Below, piece by piece: positions 1,073-61,286 of a stretch of DNA of 64,000 nt (the first letter of the stretch is position 1; the number at the start of each line of letters is the position of its first letter). The notes below the pieces were generated by a model. That model made no database searches, was not told the DNA's origin, and was given only the letters and a program-made list of their open reading frames with translations. A program made the position numbers and the translations under genes. The stretch spans positions 42,911 through 106,910 of the forward strand of contig JBBTRI010000001.1 in NCBI GenBank assembly GCA_038065255.1, read 5' to 3'. The stretch is from Patescibacteria group bacterium (GTDB lineage Bacteria; Patescibacteriota; Patescibacteriia; JACQRZ01).

Positions 1073-3811
<2,739 letters not shown>

Positions 3812-5457: not shown

Positions 5458-6273
5458 GTGCAAGGAGATGTGTTCGCCGTAGCGAGCAAATATACCGGAG
5501 AGGCCGATATTCGCGCACATGTCGCGACACTAAGGACAGGTCTTACCATGACCCTGTCAGAGGTTGAAAAAAATCTCTTAGAAAAATTCAAAGAACTCAA
5601 AGAATGTGATGAAATGCTTACAGCACAGAAAACAAAATTAAAGGAGCTGTATGAAATTGAAGAATCGGCAGGTGCACTCATTGCCATGCTCCAGGCTCGT
5701 GAAGATACAAAGCGGAATGCAGATCGGGAAAGGGTCGAAACAGAACAGAAAAGAAAACGCGATGAAGAAGAATATGCATTTTCATTCAGTTTCCAAAAAC
5801 GGAAAGATAAAGAAGCCTATGAAGCAGAGAAGCGAAAATTAGAAAGCGAACTTGAAACAAAACAAGCGGATTTTGATCAGCGTCAGAAAGAATTTGCTGC
5901 AAAGGAAGATGAGCTTGTTGCATTGCACACACAGGTGCAAGAATTTCCCGCGACTCTTATAAAAGAAAAAAAGCATACAGAGGAGCAGGTTGCCGCAGCA
6001 GCGGCAAAAGATAAAGAAATAGTACTCCTCATTGCTTCAAAAGAAGCTGATGCGCTAAAAACTGTTCTTGAAGGGAAAATTGAGACGCTTCAAGCGACAA
6101 ACGAAGAATGTAAAAAACTCATTACAAGCCTCCATGAACAATTAAAAGCAAGCCATGTTCAAATCCAAGAAGTTGTTCTCAAAAGCATAGAGAGCGCAGC
6201 GGGTGCAAAAACGCTTGATGCGGTCAATAAGCTTGCATTGGAACAGACCCGTTCATCAGGTGGACGGAGTTAG
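5458..6273 (+). CDS. E/K-rich coiled-coil protein of unknown function
   Basis: Long ORF with heptad-like charged composition and no recognisable catalytic motif. A promoter-like TTGACA lies upstream at 5265. Confidence 0.4.
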   Translation: MQGDVFAVASKYTGEADIRAHVATLRTGLTMTLSEVEKNLLEKFKELKECDEMLTAQKTKLKELYEIEESAGALIAMLQAREDTKRNADRERVETEQKRKRDEEEYAFSFSFQKRKDKEAYEAEKRKLESELETKQADFDQRQKEFAAKEDELVALHTQVQEFPATLIKEKKHTEEQVAAAAAKDKEIVLLIASKEADALKTVLEGKIETLQATNEECKKLITSLHEQLKASHVQIQEVVLKSIESAAGAKTLDAVNKLALEQTRSSGGRS

Positions 6274-6656
6274 ATTGTAGATACAACTTTAAGATGAGGG
6301 AGTGATGTAAAATCTTTGATATTTTTTGTAACGAGTGTTGCGCTATATTCTAATGCTGTTGCTGCAATAAGCAAATCGGCTTTGCCGCGCCGGCGGGTAC
6401 GGGAAAGAATGCCTGCTCGTATTGCGATTGCCATTGTGATTGGAAAAATGTCAAGGTGTTTAAGAGCCGTGTCAATGCGCCTTTGTTCAGAGTCTGACAT
6501 TCCGGCAAGTGCGTAGAGTTCCATGACAGTAACAACTGAAATAGCGATAGAGGTGGTATCGGAATGCGGCACTGGAATAGTCCCATTAAGTATGCCGATA
6601 ACATAGTTGCTATCCAAGAGAAAACACTCTTGAAAAGCAGAATACGCTAGCGCCAT
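6270..6656 (-). CDS. vapC: PIN-domain toxin VapC
   Basis: LLDSNYVI near the N-terminus (first acidic PIN residue) and ADLLIAATALEYSATLVTKNIKDF C-terminal PIN motif. Confidence 0.75.
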   Translation of the reverse strand: MALAYSAFQECFLLDSNYVIGILNGTIPVPHSDTTSIAISVVTVMELYALAGMSDSEQRRIDTALKHLDIFPITMAIAIRAGILSRTRRRGKADLLIAATALEYSATLVTKNIKDFTSLPHLKVVSTI

Positions 6657-6808
6657 AGTTGTTTTCGGATACGCTCAATATCTTTCGGCGCACGTTTTTT
6701 TTTACTCCACATTCCTGAAAGAAGTTTCAAGGCATGTGCTGCATTGGGAGTTTTTTGTCGGAGAGAAACGCGTGCTTCGATAGTGTTAACTCTTGGTGAT
6801 ACATTCAT
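6647..6808 (-). CDS. Putative VapB-like antitoxin (53 aa, absent from the ORF track)
   Basis: My own translation is MNVSPRVNTIEARVSLRQKTPNAAHALKLLSGMWSKKKRAPKDIERIRKQLWR. Its stop overlaps the vapC start (ATGGCGCTAG), the classic antitoxin-toxin coupling. Confidence 0.5.
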   Translation of the reverse strand: MNVSPRVNTIEARVSLRQKTPNAAHALKLLSGMWSKKKRAPKDIERIRKQLWR

Positions 6809-6825: not shown

Positions 6826-6883
6826 TGGTATGTCCTAGTTATTCTACGACAGAGTATTCTGCCGGTCAATACGCTTTTTGTGG

Positions 6884-6921
6884 AAATAAAAAAAGACCTC
6901 GGAACTGGAGTGTTCCGAGGT
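6884..6921 (-). terminator. Rho-independent terminator (minus strand)
   Basis: 10-bp stem acctcggaac/gttccgaggt with a 6-nt loop, followed on the minus strand by a U-run (plus strand aaataaaaaaag). Confidence 0.5.
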
Positions 6922-7029
6922 GGTTGCCGCGTGTTTCGCGGGTGCCATGAGATCTGGCGGTTAAGGTACGATGTTGTGACTTCGAGCTCTTGCCTGGCTG
7001 GCAGTCGGGCTGCTCTGCGTTGATGCGGC

Positions 7030-7644
7030 CTAGAGGTCGATCGACGTTTTCGTCGAGTCTACGACAAACGCCTCCGACCCATCGGCATTGCCCTGCCGAC
7101 GGATGCCCGGACCGGTCTTGGTCATCCGGCTGTTCAGCCAGAGGATCAAGTTGGGCGACGAGAAGGCGATGTTGAACCGCTCGCCTTCGACCATGGAGTC
7201 CGGTGCTAGGACACCGAAACGCGTGGCGTAGGCTTCCTCGCGGATGAGGACGGGACCGTCGCCGATCCCCCAGCCCACTCTGTCGCTTTTCAGCTTCTTG
7301 TCCCAATTGTTAATTGAGACTTCCTGCTGGCCGCCCCCGGATTTTGCGTCCTTTATCATGATGAACGTGTTGGCCGAGAACTGGATGTGGAGGCCGCCTT
7401 TGTCCCTCCAGATCCAGTGGTACCCGTCCGAAGATGGGTGCCAGCCGGTGTTCGGGTTGGTCTGGGACGGTGGGTATACTCCCGGGTTGGCGGCATTTGG
7501 GGTACACTCGTACCCCGGTTGGCACCACCCCGGTCTGGTCGGGTAGGGATTCGGGTAGTATGGGTACATTGGCTGGCACCCGATGCCAGCCAATGCCGCC
7601 ACCGCTCCGAGGAGCAGGATGGCGGCAAGGACGAACCGTTTCAT
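7030..7644 (-). CDS. Secreted/lipoprotein-like protein in the GC-rich island
   Basis: Begins MKRFVLAAILLLGAVAALAGIGC (signal peptide plus Cys). About 65% GC against a roughly 46% backbone. The track's 438-aa ORF is an upstream over-extension. Confidence 0.55.
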   Translation of the reverse strand: MKRFVLAAILLLGAVAALAGIGCQPMYPYYPNPYPTRPGWCQPGYECTPNAANPGVYPPSQTNPNTGWHPSSDGYHWIWRDKGGLHIQFSANTFIMIKDAKSGGGQQEVSINNWDKKLKSDRVGWGIGDGPVLIREEAYATRFGVLAPDSMVEGERFNIAFSSPNLILWLNSRMTKTGPGIRRQGNADGSEAFVVDSTKTSIDL

Positions 7645-7721
7645 TGCTATCCTTTCACCCCGCGCACGCCTCTTAGCGAGTCGTGCAGTGAGCGTGCGCG
7701 GGGACTCGTCGAAGTGGGTCG

Positions 7722-8840
7722 CTAGAAGTGGATGCTGGTAGTCAACCCGAGCGACACGTTGTCGCCGGGCTTGCTGGGAGCGAGGATCTCGAGTCCGGCC
7801 GTGACGGAGTCCGTCACGTCGAAACCGAGGCCCACCCCCGCCTGCGCCTTGAGGTGCTTGGTCGGATCGAAGGCTGTCGCGCCGGCCGGGAAGAGCTGCC
7901 GGCCCTGCCCGACCACGTGGACGTTGAGTTGCGGCAGCTGGCTGAGTGGCCGAATACCGAGTTCGAACCGCGCGCCGTTGGAGGAGTTGGGCAACGACGA
8001 CGCTATCTTGGCGCGGTGATACCACCGTCCGTGATCGCCGTTCCAACTGGTGTAGATGTTCACGGGATTGGTGGCCAGCGAGCTGTCGCCCTGGAGGAGA
8101 AAGTCGTACGAGACTCCGGCCTCCAGCTGGTTGCTGGGGTCGACCTGGAAGCGCAAGCCCACGAGGGGACCCGCCACCACGGAATCGCTGGCGACTTTGT
8201 CGCGCCAGCCCCATGAGTTGTCGCGGCTGTAGCCGGTGTGGAGCCCTCCCATGAGGGTCCACTTGTCGTCGATCCGGACACCCCCCTTGAGGTCGGCGCT
8301 GCCGGCGCTGGTGCTGCCGCCCAACTGGCTGTTGAGCGGATTCCACGTCGTGAGATCCTGTCCCAACTGCAACTCGACGTTGCAGCAGAAACCACTCACG
8401 TTGCCGTAGCTGGGGTGGGTGTTGCCACTGTCGCTCGACGGCTGGCTGCCGCCGCTCGATGCCACCATGGTGGTATTGTTGCCGTTGCTGGCGCCGCTGG
8501 CTGCGGCGACGACGTGGGTCGTATTGCCGTTAGCGGGCTTCCAGCCGAACGGGTAGTTGCCCACCCGCAGGCCAGTCACCTTGCCGCCGATGACCGCGTT
8601 GATGTCCGTGTAGCCATTCGGGCCGAGCAGGATCCGGTATGTCGGGACGCCGTCCTTGCTGGGGACGAGTCTCGCCATTCCCGGCGGGATTGTCGTGATG
8701 TTGGCGAGCGCGGGTGCGGTGATTAGCCGCTCCCGGAGGCTCTGCCCCATCCCGATGTCCCGGAGAGTGGTTGCCGATGCCGCGCTCTGGAGGAGCACGG
8801 CGAGGATGCCCGAAAGGGCAATTGCCATGAGGCCGCGCAT
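7722..8840 (-). CDS. Outer-membrane beta-barrel (porin-like) protein in the GC-rich island
   Basis: Signal peptide MAIALSGILAVLLQSAASA, a Gly/Ser/Asn/Thr-rich body with alternating hydrophobic residues, and a C-terminal ...TTSIHF ending in Phe (the OMP signature). A strong RBS aggaggtaac precedes it. Confidence 0.5.
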   Translation of the reverse strand: MRGLMAIALSGILAVLLQSAASATTLRDIGMGQSLRERLITAPALANITTIPPGMARLVPSKDGVPTYRILLGPNGYTDINAVIGGKVTGLRVGNYPFGWKPANGNTTHVVAAASGASNGNNTTMVASSGGSQPSSDSGNTHPSYGNVSGFCCNVELQLGQDLTTWNPLNSQLGGSTSAGSADLKGGVRIDDKWTLMGGLHTGYSRDNSWGWRDKVASDSVVAGPLVGLRFQVDPSNQLEAGVSYDFLLQGDSSLATNPVNIYTSWNGDHGRWYHRAKIASSLPNSSNGARFELGIRPLSQLPQLNVHVVGQGRQLFPAGATAFDPTKHLKAQAGVGLGFDVTDSVTAGLEILAPSKPGDNVSLGLTTSIHF

Positions 8841-9250
8841 GTAGTTACCTCCTTATGCGTGCGGCGTTGGGATACTTTGCGTTTTTTCACTTTTCAGCAG
8901 GACTCACGCATTCGAAGAATAATGAAATCTTTTTATGTCAGTACTCATTTTTTTGAAACAGGTATTTTTCTGCTGAAAAATCCTTCTTACTCCCGCCGTC
9001 GCGGTCCGTAGGTTCCAAAAAATGAATACCGCCATAAAGATTTCATTAGCTCTCTAGAGTAATTTTCTCCAAATGCGGTAGTCCTGCTTCTAATTGTCAA
9101 ATTTCGGTGTCATTGCCGATGAAAGGCGCTAAAAACAGCCTATTCAAAAGACATAATGACTTAGCAGAAGTATAGCACAAAAATAGGAAAATGTCAAGAT
9201 AGGAGCGGTGGTTATAACGATTTTTTGAATACATTTTGTACTCAGGGGTA

Positions 9251-9279
9251 TTGACAAATCAAAAAAAGTATGATATCAT
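9251..9279 (+). promoter_or_regulatory. Sigma70-like promoter TTGACA-N17-TATCAT
   Basis: ggtaTTGACAaatcaaaaaaagtatgaTATCATa, sitting in the AT-rich spacer inside the GC island about 70 nt upstream of the lipoprotein gene. Confidence 0.4.
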
Positions 9280-9353
9280 AAGCTTCAATCGCTCCTGCCC
9301 TGAAAAGCTCGAGCAAGAGTTCCTCAATCGCGCGATCGAGAAAGGATACCCTC

Positions 9354-10064
9354 ATGATCCGCACCAACCCGACGGGGTTGGCGGGGATCGCTCTGTCGAT
9401 GGTCGTAGCCGCGTGCTCGACCGTCCCAACCGGCCTGCCCCCAGGCATGCCGGGAGGAGCGACCCCCCCAGCCACGTCCCCCCCGGCGTCGGGATCGACG
9501 TCGGCCTCCGTCCCGCTCCTGCCGCCGGCTCCGGTGGCGTCGGCTTCGACTCCCGTAGGGATGCCGACTGCGACGCCAACTTCGGTTCCGGCACCAGGCC
9601 TCCTGCCCCTTCCCATGTCGGGCGACAAGAAGCTGAGCGTCAGCTTCGCGTCCTCGACAGTCAAGGCTGGCTCGTTCAGTCCTGGTGTCGCAACTCTCGA
9701 TGTGAGAGAGTGGATCCCGCAAGCGGGGAAATTCACCCTCACCGGCAGGATCCTTGCAGATGGCCGATGGAAGGCCGTTACGCAGGAGTACAGTGGGAAT
9801 CCCCCTCGAATGATCTTTTTCGAGGTGGAGCCCGTGTGGACTCCGGGAAAGGTGACTGGTTATTTCACAGTAACTGGTCCGAACGGCGACCTCACAATCG
9901 TCGCAACGTCGGACTTCACTGTGGAGGCTACCACAAGCCCGACCCCGGTTCCCACCACGGCTCCCACTGCGGCACCGACCCCGGTTCCCACCACGGCTCC
10001 CACGGCGGCACCGACCCCGGTTCCCACGCCGACCGCGAGCCCCTCGGGGACAGGCGGTCTCTAG
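9354..10064 (+). CDS. Lipoprotein with Pro/Thr-rich tandem-repeat tail (GC-rich island)
   Basis: Lipobox VVAAC|S after a signal peptide; PPGMPGG and PT-rich linkers; a C-terminal repeat PTPVPTTAPTAA. Confidence 0.55.
   Translation: MIRTNPTGLAGIALSMVVAACSTVPTGLPPGMPGGATPPATSPPASGSTSASVPLLPPAPVASASTPVGMPTATPTSVPAPGLLPLPMSGDKKLSVSFASSTVKAGSFSPGVATLDVREWIPQAGKFTLTGRILADGRWKAVTQEYSGNPPRMIFFEVEPVWTPGKVTGYFTVTGPNGDLTIVATSDFTVEATTSPTPVPTTAPTAAPTPVPTTAPTAAPTPVPTPTASPSGTGGL
9939..10034 (+). repeat. 36-bp tandem repeat, about 2.7 copies, inside the lipoprotein CDS
   Basis: ccgaccccggttcccaccacggctcccac(t/g)gcggca appears twice, followed by a partial third copy. Confidence 0.7.
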
Positions 10065-10104
10065 GGACTGTCGCCACACAACGGCACATGGTGTGCCAAC
10101 CCCC

Positions 10105-10140
10105 GGCCCTTTGCAAATGCATAGGGCCACTTTTTTTATT
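10105..10140 (+). terminator. Rho-independent terminator
   Basis: Stem ggccc...gggcc followed by actttttttatttt. A second small hairpin ggcacatggtgtgcc lies just upstream. Confidence 0.5.
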
Positions 10141-10230
10141 TTACCCACATGTGCTCTTGATTTTTTTTCAAAAACATGTCAGGATAAAGCCTTGTCGGCT
10201 AAGCCGACGTTTCATAGACATAATCCTCAT

Positions 10231-15049: not shown

Positions 15050-17137
15050 ATGAAGCAATCATCAAAAATGCGCCTCTCTCCGCGCGCAAAGCTCCGTTGG
15101 ATTATCGCAGGAGTATTTCTCCTTACACTTATTGCAACAGCCTACAATAGCATTGAATTTTATAATGCCAATAAAGGCGCACTCGAAGCGCGACTCCGTA
15201 CGGTTGAGCCTCTTAAAGGTATTTCACTCCCTGAGATTCATATTCCCGTCTGGCCCGCGGAACGCTTTAGGCTTGGACTTGACCTTCGCGGAGGAACCCA
15301 TCTTGTGTATCAGGCTGATCTGGCAAAAACAGCTGCAAAGGACCAGACTTCCGCGCTTGAAGGCGCGCGAGATGTTATTGAGCGGCGCGTGAATATGTTT
15401 GGCGTTGCAGAGCCGGTTGTACAAACAGTAAAAGTAGGCAACGATTATCGTATTATTGTGGAGCTTGCGGGGGTAAGTGATATTTCGCAGGCAATCAAGA
15501 TGATCGGCGATACGCCGCTTTTGGAATTCAAAACAGCTAATCCGGCAAAAGATCAGCAGGTTATTATGTCATTGACCCCCGAACAACAGAAAGAGATCGA
15601 TACATTCAATGCCGATAGGCGCGCAAAAGCAGAAAGTGTTTTGAAACAGGCAAAGGAAGGAGCGCAATTCGGAGAGCTCGCAAAAAGCTTTTCCGATGAT
15701 GAACTTACAAAAGAAAAGGGCGGAGAGGTGGGATGGCTCTCGCCGGATTCCCAAGGAAATGCCCTCTATGATATGGCCGCAAAAGGAAAAACAGGCGAGC
15801 TGCTCCCCGATATTCTCACAGGACCGGATGGCCTCAGTATTGTGAAGGTCTTAGGGGCGCGGGATAATGGCGAAATAAAAGCAAACCATTTATTGATATG
15901 CTATAAGGGTGCACAGAGCTGCAGCAAGGAAACGTCAAAGGATGACGCGCGAAAACAACTAGAAGATTTGAAAAAACAGCTTACCAAAGAAAATTTTGTT
16001 GAATTTGCAAAAAAATATTCCACCGAACCGGGAGCACCGGAACGTGGCGGTGATTTGGGGTGGTTTGGCAGGGGCGTTATGGTCAAACCATTTGAGGACG
16101 GAGCGTTTCCGCTCGCCAAAGGCGCAATTTCAGATAGTATCGAAACTGCATTTGGGTATCATCTGATTTATAAACAGGATGAGCGGACAGTAAAGCAGTA
16201 TAATGTTGCGCGGGTGCTGTTGAAAACAAAATCAGCTGCAGATTTCCAGAAAAAGCCCGACGAGTGGCTGGCGACAGAACTTACCGGTAAGCAGTTGAAA
16301 CGGGCATATGTTGACTTTGACCCGCAAACACAGGCTCCCGAAGTGGGTTTGGAATTTGACGATGAAGGAAAGAAATTGTTCGGCGATCTTACAGCGGCAA
16401 ATGTTGGTAAGGAAATTGCCATTTTCTTGGATGCTCAGCCGATCAGCATTCCGCGAGTGAACCAGCCGATCAAAGAAGGCAAGGCTGTGATTACCGGAAA
16501 TTTTGCGCTTCAAGAAGCAAAGCTTTTGGCACAGCGCTTAAATACGGGCGCGCTGCCGATTCCTGTCACACTCATCAGTCAGCAGACAATTGGAGCAAGT
16601 TTGGGAAACGAATCACTTCAAAAGAGCTTACAGGCGGGACTCATCGGATTTGCGCTTGTTGCACTGTTCATGATCCTGTTTTATCGCATACCCGGCCTCA
16701 TAGCCGTGATCGCTCTCTGCATGTATGCAATGCTTACCCTAGCGCTTTTCAAGATCTGGCCGGTAACATTGAGCCTTGCGGGTATTGCGGGTTTTATCCT
16801 TTCGGTCGGTATGGCTGTGGATGCGAATATCTTAATTTTTGAACGCATGAAGGAAGAGCTTCACTGGGGAAAGAATCTCGATGGAAGTATTCGTGATGGG
16901 TTTAGGCGTGCATGGACATCTATTCGCGACAGCAATATGTCGTCATTGATTACGTGCTTTATCCTCTTCTGGTTTTCCGCAAGTCTTATCAAAGGTTTTG
17001 CGTTGACGCTTGCATTGGGTATTGCATTGAGCATGTTTACCGCGATTGTCATTACACGAATGCTCTTGCGTTTGGTATCCGGCTGGAAACTGCGTAACCA
17101 CGAATGGCTATTTAACAATACAAAAAAGAACGTATGA
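15050..17137 (+). CDS. secD: Protein translocase subunit SecD with inserted parvulin (PpiC) domains
   Basis: SecD TM core at both ends. Internally, two rotamase-like segments: ...GGEVGWLSPD... and ...GGDLGWFGRGVMVKPFEDGAF...FGYHLIYK. Confidence 0.85.
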   Translation: MKQSSKMRLSPRAKLRWIIAGVFLLTLIATAYNSIEFYNANKGALEARLRTVEPLKGISLPEIHIPVWPAERFRLGLDLRGGTHLVYQADLAKTAAKDQTSALEGARDVIERRVNMFGVAEPVVQTVKVGNDYRIIVELAGVSDISQAIKMIGDTPLLEFKTANPAKDQQVIMSLTPEQQKEIDTFNADRRAKAESVLKQAKEGAQFGELAKSFSDDELTKEKGGEVGWLSPDSQGNALYDMAAKGKTGELLPDILTGPDGLSIVKVLGARDNGEIKANHLLICYKGAQSCSKETSKDDARKQLEDLKKQLTKENFVEFAKKYSTEPGAPERGGDLGWFGRGVMVKPFEDGAFPLAKGAISDSIETAFGYHLIYKQDERTVKQYNVARVLLKTKSAADFQKKPDEWLATELTGKQLKRAYVDFDPQTQAPEVGLEFDDEGKKLFGDLTAANVGKEIAIFLDAQPISIPRVNQPIKEGKAVITGNFALQEAKLLAQRLNTGALPIPVTLISQQTIGASLGNESLQKSLQAGLIGFALVALFMILFYRIPGLIAVIALCMYAMLTLALFKIWPVTLSLAGIAGFILSVGMAVDANILIFERMKEELHWGKNLDGSIRDGFRRAWTSIRDSNMSSLITCFILFWFSASLIKGFALTLALGIALSMFTAIVITRMLLRLVSGWKLRNHEWLFNNTKKNV

Positions 17138-18107: not shown

Positions 18108-19523
18108 GTGCTATACTATACCTATATGGAATTTTTGCTCGACTTGATTCCAAATTTTTCTAATCCGTTTTCCGCAATGTGGTGGATGTTAAGCGGGGGC
18201 GGTTGGTTTATTATCCTTCTCATTTCCGTCAATGGCTTGTGGAAAATGTGGCTGAAAGACAGGCGCGGAGCCTATCTTGGGGCTATTGATTATGTTTTTT
18301 TGGCCATCAATGTTCCCAAGCAGACAGAACAGCCTCCGAAAGCGATTGAAAATTTCTTTCTTCACATGACAGGGCTTTTCAGCGGCAAAGGAACGCTTAT
18401 CGATCGATTTTGGAAAGGGAAATTACAAGACCGTTTTTCGTGCGAACTCATTAGTCGCGGGGGATTTGTCCAGTTCTATGTCCGTATTGCGGCTAAATAC
18501 CGGCCATTACTTGAAGCTTCTATTTTTGCCCAGTATCCCGATGCTGAAATCACTGAGACGACCGACTATGTGCTCGATGTTCCTCAGTATTGGCCTGATG
18601 AAAATTATGAAATGTGGGGATCGGAGCTTGTTCTTACCAGGCCCTATATGTATCCCATCAAGACGTATATCAGTTTTGAAGATAAGCTTTCAGGAACATT
18701 CAAAGATCCACTTGCAACTTTATTCGAATACCTTTCAACGCTTAAACAGGGTGAGCAGGCATGGATCCAAATCGCCCTCGTTGCAACAGATAATACATGG
18801 CACAAAAACGGCCTTGATGAGGTGAAAAGGCTTATTGGGCAAAAAGTTTCCCACAAGAGCAGCGCCATTGATACGCTTACCAAGGGTCTGTTTGGATGGG
18901 TAGTGAATCTTGCACATGAGTTTACAAAAGAATTATTCGGTTTTGCCGGCAGTGGTCCGGGTGAGGGTGGCAAAGCCGCGGGAGGGCAGAACTATCCGAG
19001 TCTTATGCAATTTCTTTCTCCGGGAGAAAAAAATGTTTTGGAGCAAATTCAGATGAAATTAGCAAAGCCAGGTTTTTTTGTGAAAATCCGCTTGGTATAT
19101 CTGGCGCCGCGGCAGATATACATGAAACAGCGTGCGATGGCAGGTCTTTTGGGCGCATTCAAGCAATTTAGTATTCTTGATTTGAATACCTTCACCATGG
19201 ACGATTGTTCAAAAGTATCCGCAAATTATTTCTTTGTTCCCCAGCGCATAGCGAGGCGGCAGAACAAGCTTATGCGCGCGTATAGGAATCGTTCGGCTGT
19301 CGGAGGGCATCCCCCCTATATTCTTAATGCTGAGGAGCTTGCAACGCTCTGGCACTTCCCTATGATAGACATTGCCGCGCCGTTGTTGAGTAAAACAGCA
19401 AGTCGGAGGGGTGAACCGCCCAAATCACTTCCACTTCATGAGGTTGCCACTGCACCATCGCGCGCACCACTTCCTTCGCTGGAAGAAACAGAAGACACGC
19501 CAGATAATATTCCTTTTCTATGA
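18108..19523 (+). CDS. Membrane-anchored protein of unknown function, coupled to the downstream ATPase
   Basis: An N-terminal TM hairpin (WWMLSGGGWFIILLISVNGLW) followed by a large soluble domain. The stop overlaps the next start as ATGA. Confidence 0.4.
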   Translation: MLYYTYMEFLLDLIPNFSNPFSAMWWMLSGGGWFIILLISVNGLWKMWLKDRRGAYLGAIDYVFLAINVPKQTEQPPKAIENFFLHMTGLFSGKGTLIDRFWKGKLQDRFSCELISRGGFVQFYVRIAAKYRPLLEASIFAQYPDAEITETTDYVLDVPQYWPDENYEMWGSELVLTRPYMYPIKTYISFEDKLSGTFKDPLATLFEYLSTLKQGEQAWIQIALVATDNTWHKNGLDEVKRLIGQKVSHKSSAIDTLTKGLFGWVVNLAHEFTKELFGFAGSGPGEGGKAAGGQNYPSLMQFLSPGEKNVLEQIQMKLAKPGFFVKIRLVYLAPRQIYMKQRAMAGLLGAFKQFSILDLNTFTMDDCSKVSANYFFVPQRIARRQNKLMRAYRNRSAVGGHPPYILNAEELATLWHFPMIDIAAPLLSKTASRRGEPPKSLPLHEVATAPSRAPLPSLEETEDTPDNIPFL

Positions 19524-21097
19524 CAGACATTACACCGGTTGGCATTGCAAATTTCAGAAACCACAATCGGCGGTTCGGTATTAAAACCGACGATCGCCGG
19601 CGCCACATGTATATTATCGGTAAAACCGGCATGGGCAAATCAACCACGCTCGAGAATATGATCATAGAAGATATTCGCATGGGCAGGGGAGTTGGCGTTG
19701 TTGATCCTCATGGGGAGCTTGCTGAAACGATCCTTCGGTACATTCCTTCAAACCGCGTTAACGATGTTGTGTATATCAATCCCGGGGATATGGACTATCC
19801 GGTCGCGTTTAATATTTTGGAAACTGTTGACGAGCGGCATAAGCATTTGGTCGCATCCGGGCTCATGGGGGTATTCAAAAAAATCTGGCCAGATGTGTGG
19901 AGCCCTCGTATGGAATATATTCTTAACAATACCCTTCTCGCTCTCTTGGATTATCCGGGAAGCACCATGCTTGGCGTGAATCGCATGTTGGCGGATAAGC
20001 CCTATCGGCTTAAAGTTATTGAAAAGATAAAAGACCCTATCGTCAAGGCATTTTGGGTGAGCGAATTTGCAAAGTATAACGAAAAATTTGCGACAGAAGC
20101 CATTGCTCCTATTCAAAATAAGGTAGGGCAGTTTTTATCTGCTTCTATTATTCGCAATATTGTGGGTCAGGTGAAGTCGACTATCAATATTCGCGACATT
20201 ATGGATGAAGGAAAGATTTTGATCCTCAATCTTTCCAAGGGAAGAATCGGCGAGGACAACAGCCGCCTGCTAGGGGGTATGCTGATTACCAAAATTCAGC
20301 TTTCAGCCATGGAGCGCGTAGATGTGCCCGAAGAAGACCGCCGCGATTTTTTCCTCTATGTTGATGAATTTCAAAACTATGCTACGGAAAGTTTTGCGAA
20401 TATTTTATCTGAGGCGCGAAAATACCACTTGAGCTTGATTATGGCGCACCAATATATTGAGCAACTTGACGAAACTGTTCGTGCTGCCGTGTTTGGCAAC
20501 GTCGGAACTATTATTACATTCCGTGTCGGTGCCGGAGATGCGGAATTTTTAGTGAAAGAATTCACGCCGCGTTTTATTGAAGAAGATTTGGTGAATTTAC
20601 CCAAGCATGCCTTCTATATCAAACTTATGATCGATGGATTGGTATCCGATCCATTTTCATCAAACGGATTGCCGCCGTTTCCCAAAGAAGATATTACAGG
20701 CAACGAGGAAAAGGTCATTCGTGTTTCGCGCGAACGCTATGCAAAGAAACGCGAGCTTGTGGAAGAAAAAATCACACGGTGGACAGAGAGTATGCAGGAA
20801 GAAGATCGCAAACGCGAAGAACAGCAAGGAGAACGGATGACATCGCGGGATCGTTTTGACCGCGGTTCAGATAGACGTGACAGACCGCCGATGCGTTCGC
20901 GTCCTCCGCGTAGAGACGATCGTAGAGACGATCGCAGAGATGACCAATTTCAAGATCGTCCGCGCGCTCCCCAAGGAATGACGCATCCTCCTAGTCCAAG
21001 AAAAATACAACCAGCTCCAAGTCAGCCACCAATTTCTTTGACAGATTTAGCTGCAAAAAAACCAACGTCGTTTACAGGGCCAAAAAAAGCGCAGTAA
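19520..21097 (+). CDS. VirD4/TraD/TraG-like coupling-type ATPase (FtsK/HerA superfamily)
   Basis: Walker A IIGKTGMGKST, VVDPHGELAE (a DPKGE-like motif), Walker B FFLYVDEFQNY, and AHQY. The C-terminal tail is R/D-rich and low-complexity. Confidence 0.55.
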   Translation: MTDITPVGIANFRNHNRRFGIKTDDRRRHMYIIGKTGMGKSTTLENMIIEDIRMGRGVGVVDPHGELAETILRYIPSNRVNDVVYINPGDMDYPVAFNILETVDERHKHLVASGLMGVFKKIWPDVWSPRMEYILNNTLLALLDYPGSTMLGVNRMLADKPYRLKVIEKIKDPIVKAFWVSEFAKYNEKFATEAIAPIQNKVGQFLSASIIRNIVGQVKSTINIRDIMDEGKILILNLSKGRIGEDNSRLLGGMLITKIQLSAMERVDVPEEDRRDFFLYVDEFQNYATESFANILSEARKYHLSLIMAHQYIEQLDETVRAAVFGNVGTIITFRVGAGDAEFLVKEFTPRFIEEDLVNLPKHAFYIKLMIDGLVSDPFSSNGLPPFPKEDITGNEEKVIRVSRERYAKKRELVEEKITRWTESMQEEDRKREEQQGERMTSRDRFDRGSDRRDRPPMRSRPPRRDDRRDDRRDDQFQDRPRAPQGMTHPPSPRKIQPAPSQPPISLTDLAAKKPTSFTGPKKAQ

Positions 21098-40784: not shown

Positions 40785-41399
40785 ATGAAAAACTCTAACA
40801 CGTGCCCATTTGGAGAAAAATTTCAAAAGTACTGGGACAAAAGGTACCAATTATTTTCTAAGTTTGACGAAGGCATCCAAGTTGATGAACAAGCATTGTT
40901 TTCTATCACTCCAGAACAACACGCGATTGATCATGCCAAGAGGTTGAAAGGAAAAATCGTCCTTGATGCTCTTGGTTGTGTTGGTGGAAACGCAATCGCG
41001 TTTGCTCAATATTGTAAAAAAGTTTATATGATTGAACTAGATGAGAATCGTATTAAAATGGCTGAAAACAATGCTCGCGTATATGGTGTCAGCAATAAAA
41101 TAGAGTTTATTCATGGTGATTATTTTGATGAGGCACCAAAAATTGAAGCAGATGTAGTTTATCTTGACCCGCCGTGGGGTGGCCCAGATTACATAGGTCT
41201 GAAAAAATTCAAATTGGATAATTTTTCTCCAAATGGGCATGACATACTTGAGCTAGCTTTTAAGCATTTTCCTCAGGTAGTAATGAGAATTCCAAGAAAT
41301 TTTGATCCGAAGGAACTTAAACAACTTAAACATGAATTTGAAGAAATTGACGATTACTCTGGTGAAAAGCTAGTTACAAAAACAGTCTATTTCAAATGA
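40785..41399 (+). CDS. TGS1-type RNA cap guanine-N2 methyltransferase family protein
   Basis: SAM motif VLDALGCVGGNAIAFA and the TGS1-specific amino-methyltransferase motif VYLDPPWGGPDY. Nearly colinear with the human TGS1 catalytic core. Confidence 0.7.
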   Translation: MKNSNTCPFGEKFQKYWDKRYQLFSKFDEGIQVDEQALFSITPEQHAIDHAKRLKGKIVLDALGCVGGNAIAFAQYCKKVYMIELDENRIKMAENNARVYGVSNKIEFIHGDYFDEAPKIEADVVYLDPPWGGPDYIGLKKFKLDNFSPNGHDILELAFKHFPQVVMRIPRNFDPKELKQLKHEFEEIDDYSGEKLVTKTVYFK

Positions 41400-41703
41400 A
41401 CTGGACGGTATAAAATATTACAAACATCGTACAACTAACGATATCTGGTTCCGCTACGCTCCATAAAAACTTCCTATATCCCTGACGTTATTCAAAAGCG
41501 CGGAGCGATTTTGAATAACACCGTCATACAGTTCAGAAAATAGCGATAAATTTTTAAATTTCAATAAGATATCGCTAATTTCCTCACCCAAACCATGCAA
41601 TTAGTTTCCATCCCTTGAAAACATATAAACTAATGTGTAAGATAGTTTATATGATAAAAAACTAGCAAACTATCTATGAAAATTGAAATTGGCCTAAATA
41701 TAA

Positions 41704-42300
41704 AACAAAAACCTGGAAAAATTCTTACACAATGAAAAATTAACTCTTCCCCTAATCCATATCGCACTTACCCACGCCCAATTTGAAACGATTCACCCAT
41801 TTCTTGACGGCAACGGCAGAACAGGACGACTGCTAATTACCATGCTTTTGTGCCACCGCGAAATGCTTGAGCGGCCAGTGTTATTTTTATCGTCATATTT
41901 TAAAAAACACAAAAAAATTTACTACCAAAAACTACATGATTATCATTTTGGCGAGGTTGAATCATGGGTTGATTTTTTTCTTGACGGTATTATTGAAACA
42001 GCCAACGATTCAATATCTATTTCAAAACAAATTACAAAACTGCGAGAAGACGATATGGCAAAAATTCAAGCGCTGGCAAAAAGAGAATCGGAAAGCGGTG
42101 TTTTGGTATTGCGAAAATTGTATGCTCAGCCGATTGTCTCAAGTAAAACAATAATGGAGTGGACAAAATTTTCTCGCGTCGGAGCCCAAAAACTTATCGA
42201 CAGATTTATGAACCTTGATATTCTTGAACTGAAGGACGCCAAAGAAACTTACGACCGCACTTTTGTCTATCGAAAATATATTGATATTTTCATGAAATAA
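41704..42300 (+). pseudogene. Truncated Fic/Doc-family gene (N-terminus missing)
   Basis: The reading frame opens right after a TAA. It encodes HIALTHAQFETIHPFLDGNGRTGRLLI, the Fic motif HPFx(D/E)GNGR, but no in-frame start and no upstream Fic core. Confidence 0.55.
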
Positions 42301-42508
42301 TCAGAGCAGCGATATGGCTACAGGGCGTTCATCCCTACCCCTATGCAATATTGATTGATGAATTCACCCCCATGATTGAGCTAAAAAAACTAAAAGTGAA
42401 AAAATAATTTACACCCGATACAACAAGTTATATGAAATTAACTTTGTCCCGCCTAACAGCGAAACCATTATAAATATTTAATTTCTTATCATAAATAACA
42501 GCAATAGT

Positions 42509-43033
42509 ATGATCGAACTAGAAAAAACCTACTTGGCAAAAAAACTTCCTGAAAATTTGAGAAGTTGCAAATTCAAGGAAATTATTGATGTATATTTACC
42601 TGAAAATAGCGAACATCCAAAATTAAGAGTCAGGAAAAATGGTAATAAGTTTGAATTAACCAAAAAAGAGCCTGTGAATGACGGAGATGCTTCACATCAA
42701 GAGGAACAAACAATAATTCTTACTGAAATTGAATTTAATTCTTTGAATCAACAACTTAAAGGTAAAAAAGTTAGAAAAATTAGATATTTTTATGATCATA
42801 ATGGTCGAATTGCAGAATTTGATGTTTTTCAAGATGAGTTAGTAGGGCTTGTAGTTGTTGATTTTGAATTTGCAACCTTAAAAGAAAAGGAAGATTTTCA
42901 AATTCCAGATTTTTGCCTTGTAGATGTAACTCAGGAAGTTTTTATAGCCGGTGGAATGATTTGTGGTAAGTCTTATGAAGATATTGAAGATAATTTGAAG
43001 AAGTTTGAATATAGTAAGTTATTTCTTGAATAA
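42509..43033 (+). CDS. CYTH-domain (triphosphate tunnel metalloenzyme) protein
   Basis: Starts MIELEKTYL (the canonical CYTH ExExK), with downstream alternating acidic and basic strand residues. 174 aa. Confidence 0.6.
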   Translation: MIELEKTYLAKKLPENLRSCKFKEIIDVYLPENSEHPKLRVRKNGNKFELTKKEPVNDGDASHQEEQTIILTEIEFNSLNQQLKGKKVRKIRYFYDHNGRIAEFDVFQDELVGLVVVDFEFATLKEKEDFQIPDFCLVDVTQEVFIAGGMICGKSYEDIEDNLKKFEYSKLFLE

Positions 43034-43050
43034 ATTTTTCTTTTGAATTA

Positions 43051-61211: not shown

Positions 61212-61286
61212 GCCGCTATCGTCTAGCCCGGTCCAGGACGTCTCCCTCTCACGGAGAAAACTGGGGTTCGAATCCCCATAGCGGTA
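61212..61286 (+). tRNA. tRNA-Glu (anticodon CUC); CCA not encoded
   Basis: Hand-folded cloverleaf. Acceptor GCCGCUA/UAGCGGU (G1-U72 wobble); D-arm like E. coli tRNA-Glu (UCGUCUAG...CCAGGAC); anticodon stem UCUCC/GGAGA with loop CU-CUC-AC; T-arm UGGGG-UUCGAAU-CCCCA. Confidence 0.75.

Follow-up and report, generated by a model that had tools for sequence, protein, structure and literature searches.

The 64-kb stretch of DNA analysed here, called the window below, is core chromosome of a candidate-phyla-radiation (CPR) bacterium and encodes SecA, SecDF, ribosomal proteins S4, S9 and S11, RpoA and AlaRS. Its nearest named SecA relatives belong to Candidatus Uhrbacteria, at about 65% identity. SecA and SecDF flank a locus of three genes that is adjoined by surface-polysaccharide genes, its neighbours coding for a PIN toxin, a coiled-coil protein, Wzz and Wzy. 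The three open reading frames were present where an earlier note on this DNA had placed them, and comprise a gene for an outer-membrane-protein-like (OMP-like) protein and two genes for lipoprotein-like products, lipo1 and lipo3. We refer to them with their regulatory elements as the cassette, the features of which are as follows.

6886-6921, minus strand: intrinsic terminator of the OMP-like gene/lipo1 operon, with a 10-bp stem, a 6-nt loop and a T7 run
7030-7644, minus strand: lipo1, 204 aa, GC 0.61, GC3 0.80
7658-7703, minus strand: intercistronic hairpin between the OMP-like gene and lipo1, GC-rich, with no U-tract
7722-8840, minus strand: OMP-like (candidate β-barrel) gene, 372 aa, GC 0.66, GC3 0.87, C-terminus ...SIHF
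8841-9162, minus strand: leader of the OMP-like gene, ~320 nt, GC 0.40, with the Shine-Dalgarno sequence AAGGAGG
9169-9197, minus strand: promoter of the OMP-like gene/lipo1 operon, TTGACA-17-TATACT with an extended -10 TG (11/12 + TG)
9251-9279, plus strand: lipo3 promoter, TTGACA-17-TATCAT with an extended -10 TG (11/12)
9354-10064, plus strand: lipo3, 236 aa, GC 0.66, GC3 0.73
10105-10137, plus strand: intrinsic terminator of lipo3, GGCCCU…AGGGCC and then U7

The earlier note had described a GC-rich island holding these three genes in a genome of lower GC, with a composition and codon usage unlike those of every other gene in the window, and our compositional checks bore this out. Positions 6887-10138 have a GC content of 0.602, against 0.438 in the remainder of the 64 kb. 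Sliding GC climbs from 0.44 to 0.60-0.67 over about 6900-8860 and 9350-10130, and GC per kb is at or below 0.51 throughout the rest of the window. The AT-rich spacer of about 500 bp that had been noticed between the divergent genes measures 513 bp (8841-9353) and has a GC content of 0.398. Periodicity of GC3 singles out exactly the reading frames 7030-7644 (minus), 7722-8840 (minus) and 9354-10064 (plus). The 48 other ORFs of the window have a GC3 of 0.394 ± 0.061 with a maximum of 0.479, so that the island genes (GC3 0.73-0.87) stand at z = 5.5-7.7. Both C and G are favoured, whatever the degeneracy class: the C fraction of NNY codons in the island genes is 0.83 versus 0.28-0.34, and the G fraction of NNR codons is 0.78 versus 0.30-0.39. 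The bias also covers the 3' UTRs and the stretch between the two cistrons (GC 0.61-0.65) and spares the leader and promoter (0.40). Since the ribosomal-protein genes of the window reach a GC3 of only 0.32-0.46, the bias of the island is not that of ordinary translational selection.

Regulatory elements of the cassette

The promoter of the OMP-like gene/lipo1 operon is kept in the window, in the relatives L001 and L005-L008 and in the outgroups L013 and L015 (L001-L008 are loci from independent ENA, NCBI, JGI and Logan assemblies). The lipo3 promoter is conserved across the spacer alignment, and its match to the consensus at 11 of 12 positions agrees with the host-like promoter that the earlier note had seen in the spacer. 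We placed the transcription start of the leader from the position of the operon promoter. The leader holds a near-perfect 193-nt hairpin (8896-9088) and folds with an MFE of -106.5 kcal/mol (z = -8.1). The basal stem of this hairpin is conserved in L001, L005 and L006, and the leader matched no family in Rfam. Identity between L001 and L005 is 92-99% in the spacer versus 52-57% at four-fold sites, which points to purifying selection on the regulatory region.

The intercistronic hairpin occurs in the window, L001 and L005, where its stems differ in sequence and stay complementary (CACGC/GCGUG versus GCGCG/CGCGC); it may act as a 3' stabiliser or as an attenuator and so determine the proportion in which the two products are made. 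In the operon terminator the stem lies at 6921-6896 and is followed by the tail CTTTTTTTAT. The lipo3 terminator was absent from the consensus scan because its loop exceeds 8 nt. Judging by the strength of the promoters, by the hairpins in the leader and between the cistrons and by the Shine-Dalgarno sequence, the cassette is probably expressed at a high and stable level.

Predicted products of the cassette

The OMP-like protein is in NCBI as MEK7648340.1, with a start 4 codons later and the title 'MAG: hypothetical protein AAB400_00290 [Patescibacteria group bacterium]'. By inspection, its N-terminus is a signal peptide, MRGLMAIALSGILAVLLQSAASA followed by TT (…AASA/TT). A small β domain (residues 26-93) comes after the signal peptide, and the protein continues with a disordered S/G/N linker, in which a Cys-Cys pair is conserved, and then with ~220 C-terminal aa that would form ~12 long β-strands and end in Phe. 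The last residue is Phe in six of the seven members of the family, the terminal strand alternates hydrophobic and polar residues (…LGLTTSIHF), and the protein is poor in Glu and Lys and rich in Gly, Ser, Thr and Asn. AlphaFold gave a pLDDT of 46-53, the β-barrel model having a pLDDT of 53 and a pTM of 0.39, and the fold matches were all outer-membrane barrels. No sequence search reached significance: OMP_b-brl (PF13505) scored E = 0.037 and 14.6 bits, under the 28.7-bit Pfam cut-off, profile P0009 gave E = 0.045, and a PDB profile search returned NspA at E = 0.19 and OpdC at 1.1. The C-terminal domain is predicted, at low confidence, to be a transmembrane-type β-barrel of 10-12 strands.

We compared the protein with the small (8-12-stranded) OMPs of diderms (PF13505; OpcA, NanC/KdgM, NspA and autotransporter β-domains). 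It resembles them in its Sec signal peptide, the ~220-aa C-terminal region of predicted long antiparallel β-hairpins, the terminal Phe and the low Glu/Lys and high Gly/Ser/Thr/Asn content. Unlike them, it has no significant sequence match (E = 0.037-0.045), carries the extra N-terminal β domain and the disordered linker with the Cys-Cys pair, and belongs to a CPR host, a type of bacterium with no described outer membrane or BAM machinery. In published descriptions CPR cells are monoderm (PMC8871954), so that a barrel of this kind would have neither an evident membrane to sit in nor evident machinery for its insertion. Omp85/BamA had no match among the ORFs scanned against Pfam (window 163-45554). 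Barrel-plus-anchor envelope proteins are also found outside the classical Gram-negatives, in atypical diderms (SlpA of Deinococcus/Thermus, OmpM of Negativicutes), and a further comparison is the porin MspA of mycobacteria; the role of Deinococcus SlpA is named in the title of PMC10743373. These proteins follow a two-part logic of an N-terminal wall-proximal domain and a C-terminal barrel, which the OMP-like protein appears to share. In contrast to them, it is much smaller, has no SLH or other known anchoring domain in Pfam, and shows no sequence similarity to them.

The lipo1 product has the signal peptide MKRFVLAAILLLGAVAALAGIG before a Cys, followed by a linker rich in Pro and Tyr and by ~130 aa that make up a globular domain. 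Its lipobox, …ALAGIG/C, is by inspection a variant form, which presumably fits the permissive PROSITE-type pattern. It had no Pfam match; its homologues are from CPR only, at 66% identity, and in L001, L005/6, L007 and L008 the orthologue lies 3' of the OMP-like gene in all cases. In the lipo3 product the lipobox …MVVAA/C (by inspection) is followed by a Pro/Ala/Ser/Thr linker and then by ~100 aa of β-rich domain. A 36-nt tandem repeat (2.5 copies, 98% matching, 9939-10027) codes for its PT-rich C-terminal tail, in line with the lipobox lipoprotein with a PT-rich repeat tail that had been called from the letters. Its orthologues in L001, L005 and L007 share the divergent orientation. Among the lipoprotein orthologues the lipobox takes, by inspection, the forms LAGC, LTGC, IAGC, VTGC and VAAC. 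Judged by these motifs, both products would be lipid-anchored; neither Lgt nor LspA was seen among the ORFs of window 163-45554 scanned against Pfam. Of what the earlier note had said about the products, their nature as exported envelope proteins stood (two carry a lipobox and the third a signal peptide), and the 'outer-membrane β-barrel' is to be read as a prediction only.

The cassette in relatives and its origin

Cassettes with equal orientation, GC content (0.60-0.69) and neighbours (CofD and Wzz/Wzy, as in the window) were found in L001-L004, L005/6, L007 and L008, that is, in at least five diverged relatives. This outcome of the comparison with sibling genomes matches the 'ancestral amelioration-resistant locus' that the earlier note had named as a refutation of its own proposals. 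The cassette is syntenic even in lineages whose CofD proteins are no more than 68-73% identical and whose four-fold sites are near random. The dS between the window and L001 is 1.4-1.7 (SecA, CofD), and the four-fold identity of CofD between the window and L008 is 0.29 (random = 0.25). In the island, deep pairs have a four-fold identity of 0.30-0.49 (random 0.31-0.39), with 0.52 in one 27-site comparison. GC at four-fold sites (GC4) is 0.62-0.88 in the island in every lineage and 0.50-0.64 in the flanking genes.

The outgroups L013 and L015 are Uhrbacteria-like (SecA 65-67% identical, genome GC about 0.49-0.51). Their SecA…SecD locus holds a single gene on the same strand as in the window, with a GC content of 0.66, a GC3 of 0.82-0.88 and an identical promoter (TTGACA-17-TG.TATACT). 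The encoded protein has a signal peptide, its linker is rich in Ser, Thr, Asn and Gln and its C-terminal region in Gly, and in L015 the N-terminal region occurs as an internal repeat. This protein showed no detectable homology to the window family (hhalign probability 0.2%), so that orthology rests on position, promoter and architecture. No GC-rich gene was found within 10 kb downstream of SecA in L017, L018 and L019.

The cassette protein family has only a few members, all from CPR. When 1.84 billion representative proteins were scanned exhaustively with HMMER, no homologue outside this CPR group appeared, nor was there one among 5.8 billion clusters, and two protein databases and a metagenome scan gave no reservoir or donor sequence. 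The island shows no bounding direct repeats, tRNA gene or integrase/transposase genes, and the only tRNA gene of the window lies at 61212.

The sharp GC boundaries would suit an assembly chimera, in which a high-GC fragment was joined to a CPR contig, as the earlier note had considered. However, a promoter and terminators lie right at these boundaries, a low-GC spacer lies inside the island, and the junctions of the GC-rich genes with CofD or Wzz/Wzy in low-GC flanks were recovered independently in ENA ERZ27253378, in NCBI GCA_900206355.1, GCA_040960315.1 and GCA_040960375.1, in JGI 3300027835 and in several Logan runs; a chimera is hardly credible. The other origin proposed there, recent transfer from a high-GC diderm, draws on the atypical composition, but a cassette that is syntenic in at least five diverged relatives, shows no mobility signatures and has no donor lineage in the homologue searches speaks against it, and we regard a recent arrival in this genome alone as very improbable.

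An ancient transfer would have brought the genes once into the common ancestor of the clade; the donor, a high-GC diderm, would have left them a composition that has been decaying slowly since (incomplete amelioration). Such a history would agree with a β-barrel-plus-lipoprotein content typical of diderms, with the fold matches to outer-membrane barrels and with a composition like that of a genome of about 65% GC. The excess of S→W over W→S among polarised four-fold substitutions (48 versus 23) points toward decay, and fits equilibrium at this level of saturation as well as slow decay. Yet with synonymous sites near saturation GC4 is equally high everywhere and shows no trend with divergence, and under a two-state model unconstrained sites should have moved through most of the distance to the host value at a flank dS of at least 1.4-1.7. 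Moreover, the outgroups hold a GC-rich gene at the corresponding site with an identical promoter, the promoters and leader look like those of the host and are conserved, and the 1.84 billion representatives include no donor-side homologue, so that we consider this history distinctly unlikely. We give a similarly low probability to a replacement hot-spot at which alleles for surface proteins keep arriving, by re-import or exchange, from a high-GC reservoir that has escaped sampling (a different CPR lineage, the host organism or a phage), the GC content being high without any local force. In its favour, the histories of island and flanks disagree: L001 and L006 are 92% identical in CofD and 72% in the OMP-like protein, and an island more diverged than its flanks implies a history that is not purely vertical. 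The window's OMP-like protein is likewise nearer to L006 (72%, with an identical signal peptide) than to L001 (63%), CofD being equidistant. Identity along the locus is mosaic, and the outgroup gene at the corresponding site is unalignable with the window family. Against the hot-spot stand the low-GC CPR setting of every homologue with visible flanks, the lack of a reservoir sequence in the databases and metagenome scan, and the conserved promoter and leader and fixed gene order, which argue for continuity of the locus.

Proposed maintenance of the high GC content and comparable systems

With a confidence slightly above even, we favour the reading that the GC-rich cassette is an old resident envelope locus of an Uhrbacteria-related CPR clade and that its GC content is maintained. 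The cassette would have been inherited vertically, and not be foreign DNA passing through or an error of assembly. From the conserved AT-rich spacer, two divergent σ70-type promoters, near-consensus and with an extended -10, would drive two units, one leading from the structured leader through the OMP-like gene, the GC hairpin and lipo1 to a terminator, the other from lipo3 to its own terminator. All three products may be exported by Sec and would together most likely form an abundant surface complex, which could be a pore, serve for anchoring or make contact with a host. The island GC is not, we conclude, leftover donor composition; the high GC (GC3 about 0.8 versus 0.4) would be a stationary property of the transcription units downstream of the start codon. 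Its retention through divergence that randomised synonymous sites implies a locus-specific force. Selection acting on the DNA or the mRNA is one candidate, and GC-biased gene conversion linked to the exchange of alleles is another. The gene-conversion-linked GC effects that we know of in bacteria are far below the 40-point difference in GC3. Bacterial GC content correlates with recombination (PMC4450053).

A further proposition, which we hold only tentatively and find on balance doubtful, is that a clade of CPR, bacteria described as monoderm, makes an abundant transmembrane-type β-barrel and partner lipoproteins from genes at a gene-specific GC equilibrium. If so, the barrel would imply a layer resembling an outer membrane, or else a pore placed in the host cell, and the cassette would have an equilibrium GC3 of about 0.85 in a background of 0.40, which selection or biased conversion would have kept while the lineages diverged to the level of orders. 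To our knowledge, such a gene-specific compositional equilibrium has not been described for bacterial protein-coding genes.

Atypical GC is routinely taken for recent transfer or contamination, and MAG-cleaning tools may discard segments like this foreign-looking one of 3 kb, which would be an old, conserved piece of a CPR chromosome. CPR envelopes are almost uncharacterised, and the clade-specific, probably abundant β-barrel-like protein and its lipoprotein partners are candidates for a major surface or host-contact structure. Being small and well bounded, the cassette would be tractable for telling nucleic-acid selection from GC-biased gene conversion in bacteria.

S-layer genes such as Lactobacillus slpA have strong promoters and stabilising 5'UTR stem-loops (PMC10221546). 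The cassette resembles such units in its apparently very strong promoter, in a long leader whose stable stem-loop would expose the RBS, and in its terminator. A comparable structured 5' leader is that of E. coli ompA. Unlike the S-layer units, the cassette encodes proteins unrelated to known S-layer proteins and with no Pfam S-layer or anchor domain, and we know of no gene-specific GC shift in S-layer or ompA expression systems. The O-antigen rfb clusters of enterobacteria form a low-GC surface locus at a fixed site, with allelic diversity and signs of exchange. The cassette is similarly a surface locus at a fixed site, off-genome in composition in all relatives and with allelic diversity and signs of exchange. 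It differs from the rfb clusters in deviating to high GC, in holding protein genes and not sugar-pathway genes, and in a deviation that is far larger at synonymous sites and persists near synonymous saturation.

Composition of the GC-rich cassette

Sliding-window analysis showed that GC content rose from ~0.44 to 0.60–0.67 across 6900-8860 and 9350-10130 and fell to ~0.41 between them, with all other kilobases of the 64-kb window at or below 0.51. The GC-rich island of the earlier note is therefore real and was accurately described. Its three open reading frames (ORFs) lie where that note had placed them, and the three-base periodicity of GC was compatible with just these frames:

7030-7644, minus strand: lipo1, lipoprotein gene, 204 aa, GC 0.61, GC3 0.80
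7722-8840, minus strand: OMP-like gene, 372 aa, GC 0.66, GC3 0.87
9354-10064, plus strand: lipo3, lipoprotein gene, 236 aa, GC 0.66, GC3 0.73

The codon usage had been described as unlike that of every other gene, and the data bore this out: GC3 of the 48 other ORFs was 0.394 ± 0.061 (maximum 0.479), which places the island genes 5.5–7.7 SD out. Codons ending in G or C were favoured generally (four-fold sites: C 0.43, G 0.36), with a C-fraction in NNY codons of 0.83 versus 0.28–0.34 and a G-fraction in NNR codons of 0.78 versus 0.30–0.39. High GC was also found between the cistrons (0.65) and in the 3' UTRs (0.61–0.65) but not ahead of the start codon, where leader and promoter have a GC of 0.40. 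The spacer between the divergent genes, reported as AT-rich and roughly 500 bp long, measured 513 bp with a GC of 0.40, and the PT-rich repeat tail of lipo3 was traced to a 36-nt tandem repeat at 9939-10027. Two C7 homopolymer runs at 9464-9485, inside lipo3, encode Pro-Pro in the linker; their length makes them potential sites of strand slippage.

Three possible causes of this bias were set aside. Translational selection for high expression at the codon level was ruled out because the untranslated 3' segments are also GC-rich and the ribosomal-protein and rpoA genes of the window are not (GC3 0.32–0.46). Amino-acid composition was ruled out, as GC1 and GC2 were just mildly raised and the effect fell mainly on third positions. 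Overlapping or antisense genes were not supported, the periodicity fitting the annotated frames alone; long alternative-frame ORFs occur in the island because GC-rich DNA is poor in stop codons. Elsewhere in the window, 41000-47300 has low GC (0.33–0.40 per kb) and several small ORFs without Pfam families (for example 42509-43033, GC3 0.18, z = -3.4), and may be an AT-rich island, a mirror image of the cassette.

Distribution and age of the cassette

Searches with the OMP-like protein returned just four other clusters among 5.8 billion (54–69% identity), and when 1.84 billion representatives were scanned exhaustively with an HMMER profile, the sole additions were P0009 and P0010, two distant family members; a PKD-repeat match in that scan was spurious. 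Homologues of lipo1 were found in CPR only. Every member with visible flanks had the arrangement Wzy-Wzz-lipo3 ← AT-rich spacer → β-barrel gene-lipoprotein(s)-CofD-…-SecA, with an island GC of 0.60–0.69 and a flank GC of 0.37–0.49; in L007 and L008 the barrel gene is followed by two paralogous lipoproteins. These loci (L001-L004, L005/6, L007 and L008) were assembled independently (ENA, NCBI, JGI, Logan), so the assembly chimera considered in the earlier note is rejected. No match was found in GTDB representative genomes scanned with either the OMP-like alignment or CofD, and the cassette-bearing clade is apparently absent from the GTDB species representatives. The sole match in a metagenome scan was a contig already known.

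The other proposal had been recent transfer from a high-GC diderm bacterium, with the donor to be sought by protein search; the 1.84 billion representatives held no donor lineage. An island of the same GC in relatives, which that note had named as evidence against its own proposal, was found in all the loci listed. Between the window and L001, dS was 1.4–1.7 (SecA, CofD), and between the window and L008 the four-fold identity of CofD was 29%, against a random expectation of 25%. For island genes of deep pairs, four-fold identity was 30–49%, where 31–39% is expected from composition alone; the exception was one 27-site comparison, at 52%. Four-fold sites are thus near random, yet their GC was 0.62–0.88 in the island in every lineage (flanking genes, 0.50–0.64), and the presence of the cassette in L001-L008 likewise speaks against recent transfer. 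These values suggest that the synonymous sites of the island have for the most part turned over since these lineages diverged; the present composition would then reflect the substitution process at the locus, not that of an ancestral donor, and would be stationary, not residual. The origin put forward in the earlier note is wrong. These results indicate that the island is an envelope cassette of long standing, confined to one clade and belonging to an uncharacterised protein family, and that its extreme composition is persistently maintained. We rate it among the compositionally atypical surface-determinant loci, already a known class.

Three candidate explanations for the maintenance of high GC were weighed. 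Selection may act on the DNA or the mRNA, for instance by way of transcript stability. A second candidate, GC-biased gene conversion at a surface-antigen locus that undergoes recombination, is in keeping with the correlation of GC content with recombination in bacteria (PMC4450053), and the histories of island and flanks do differ: L001 and L006 are 92% identical in CofD and 72% identical in the OMP-like protein, the OMP-like protein of the window is nearer to that of L006 than to that of L001, and the level of identity varies along the locus in a mosaic pattern. High GC would also persist if the genes were re-imported repeatedly from a high-GC reservoir that is so far unseen, but neither the protein-database searches nor the metagenome scan revealed such a reservoir. 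A polarised three-taxon count at four-fold sites gave 48 S→W and 23 W→S changes; near saturation and at ~80% GC, an apparent S→W excess arises under a stationary process too, so that the count is uninformative between the candidates.

We also compared two outgroup loci, L013 (SecA 67% identical) and L015 (a Candidatus Uhrbacteria MAG), with genome GC of ~0.49–0.51. In both, the SecA…SecD interval holds one GC-rich gene on the same strand, with GC3 0.82–0.88:

L013, 15784-16992, minus strand: single secreted-protein gene, GC 0.66
L015, 7459-8700, minus strand: single secreted-protein gene, GC 0.66, protein MBI2483583.1

The encoded proteins comprise, in order, a signal peptide, an N-terminal region (duplicated internally in the L015 protein, where …SPSGKTLEDSIEFLNVGPSTS… occurs twice), a Ser/Thr/Asn/Gln-rich linker and a Gly-rich C-terminal region. 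The outgroup gene has a promoter identical to that of the OMP-like unit (TTGACA-17-TG.TATACT) and a leader of 135–200 nt. Profile-profile comparison (hhalign) of the window family with these proteins detected no sequence homology (probability 0.2%), so only position and architecture speak for orthology. No GC-rich gene was present near SecA in the further relatives L017 (Magasanikbacteria), L018 and L019; such a gene is not universal at this locus.

Predicted proteins and expression signals

None of the three island proteins matched a Pfam family, and lipoboxes were recognised in the lipoproteins by inspection. The OMP-like protein is composed of four parts:

N-terminus: signal peptide
Residues 26-93: small β domain
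Disordered linker: conserved Cys-Cys pair
C-terminal part: ~12 long β-strands, terminal Phe in 6/7 members

Weak OMP_b-brl matches arose independently in two diverged members, and NspA was the best hit of a PDB profile search (E = 0.19). AlphaFold gave a pLDDT of 46 with five sequences and of just 53 when two distant members were added. A β-barrel of outer-membrane type, as assigned in the earlier note, is thus likely but unproven. A barrel of this kind is unexpected in CPR, as the few cells described from that group are monoderm (PMC8871954). The vicinal Cys-Cys (residues 151-152, ~8385-8390) lies directly ahead of the first barrel strand and is invariant in 5/5 close family members; P0009 and P0010 have one at a slightly shifted linker position. 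Disulfide formation, acylation and metal binding are candidate roles.

The spacer carries two promoters back to back, that of lipo3 having been noticed earlier. The predicted expression signals are:

9197-9169, minus strand: promoter of the leftward (OMP-like) unit, 11/12 consensus positions plus extended -10 TG
9251-9279, plus strand: promoter of the lipo3 unit, 11/12 consensus positions plus extended -10 TG
~320 nt, minus strand: leader of the OMP-like gene, folding into a 193-nt near-perfect hairpin (8896-9088)
Between leader hairpin and 372-aa gene, minus strand: Shine-Dalgarno sequence AAGGAGG
7658-7703, minus strand: GC hairpin without U-tract, between the 372-aa gene and lipo1
6921-6886, minus strand: intrinsic terminator of the leftward unit, 3' of lipo1
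10105-10137, plus strand: terminator 3' of lipo3, completing the rightward unit

Between L001 and L005 the spacer was 92–99% identical and four-fold sites just 52–57%, so the spacer is under strong purifying selection. The leader hairpin had an MFE of -106.5 kcal/mol (z = -8.1), and the hairpin at 7658-7703 was kept in L001 and L005 via compensatory changes. Rfam searches, at gathering thresholds and, on the spacer, at permissive ones, gave nothing credible. Strong promoters and stabilising leader stem-loops are a hallmark of S-layer genes, whose products can make up 10–15% of cell protein (PMC10221546). The cassette shares both features, as predicted from sequence, and by analogy its expression would be high and stable.

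About 140 nt within the leader hairpin are missing from L001, L005 and L008. A ~65-nt portion of this segment (core CGGACCGCGACGGCGGGAGT…AAAAATACCTG) is ~85% identical to a leader segment of L007 (~3330-3420), despite just 30% identity between the proteins of the two lineages. The ~140-nt segment matched no Rfam family and might represent either a regulatory module present in some lineages only or a short inverted repeat that was inserted.

Chromosomal setting

At NCBI the OMP-like protein has the accession MEK7648340.1 and the name 'hypothetical protein AAB400_00290 [Patescibacteria group bacterium]'; its contig is 171 kb long, and the closest named SecA relatives are Candidatus Uhrbacteria (~65% identity). 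The window is ordinary core chromosome, encoding arginase, SecA, NUDIX, CofD, Wzz/Wzy, glycosyltransferases, SecD, SecF, a VirD4/TrwB-like ATPase, AlaRS, ribosomal proteins S11, S4 and S9, and RpoA. The island is flanked by neither mobility genes nor tRNA genes, and it is not bounded by direct repeats.

SecD (15050-17137) bears an inserted PpiC-type peptidyl-prolyl isomerase (rotamase) domain, an export-chaperone domain fused into a translocon subunit; the fusion is kept in L013, L015 and L017, the Uhrbacteria- and Magasanikbacteria-like relatives examined. Directly downstream of secDF, the window, L015 and L017 have a VirD4/TrwB-type coupling ATPase together with an ORF that in the window is 471 aa long, lacks a Pfam match and takes the place of the DUF8128 protein of L015 and L017. 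This region spans:

Window, 18108-21097
L015, 13799-16309
L017, 18708-21961

On the other side, a PIN-domain (VapC-like) toxin gene (6270-6656, minus strand) is preceded by an overlapping ~50-aa ORF (~6653-6808, minus strand), likely its antitoxin, with a promoter-like site ahead of the putative pair at 6869-6841. The pair and a coiled-coil gene (5458-6273) lie between CofD and the island in the window lineage only; in L001 and L013, AbiEii genes occupy the SecA…CofD interval in place of the PIN pair.
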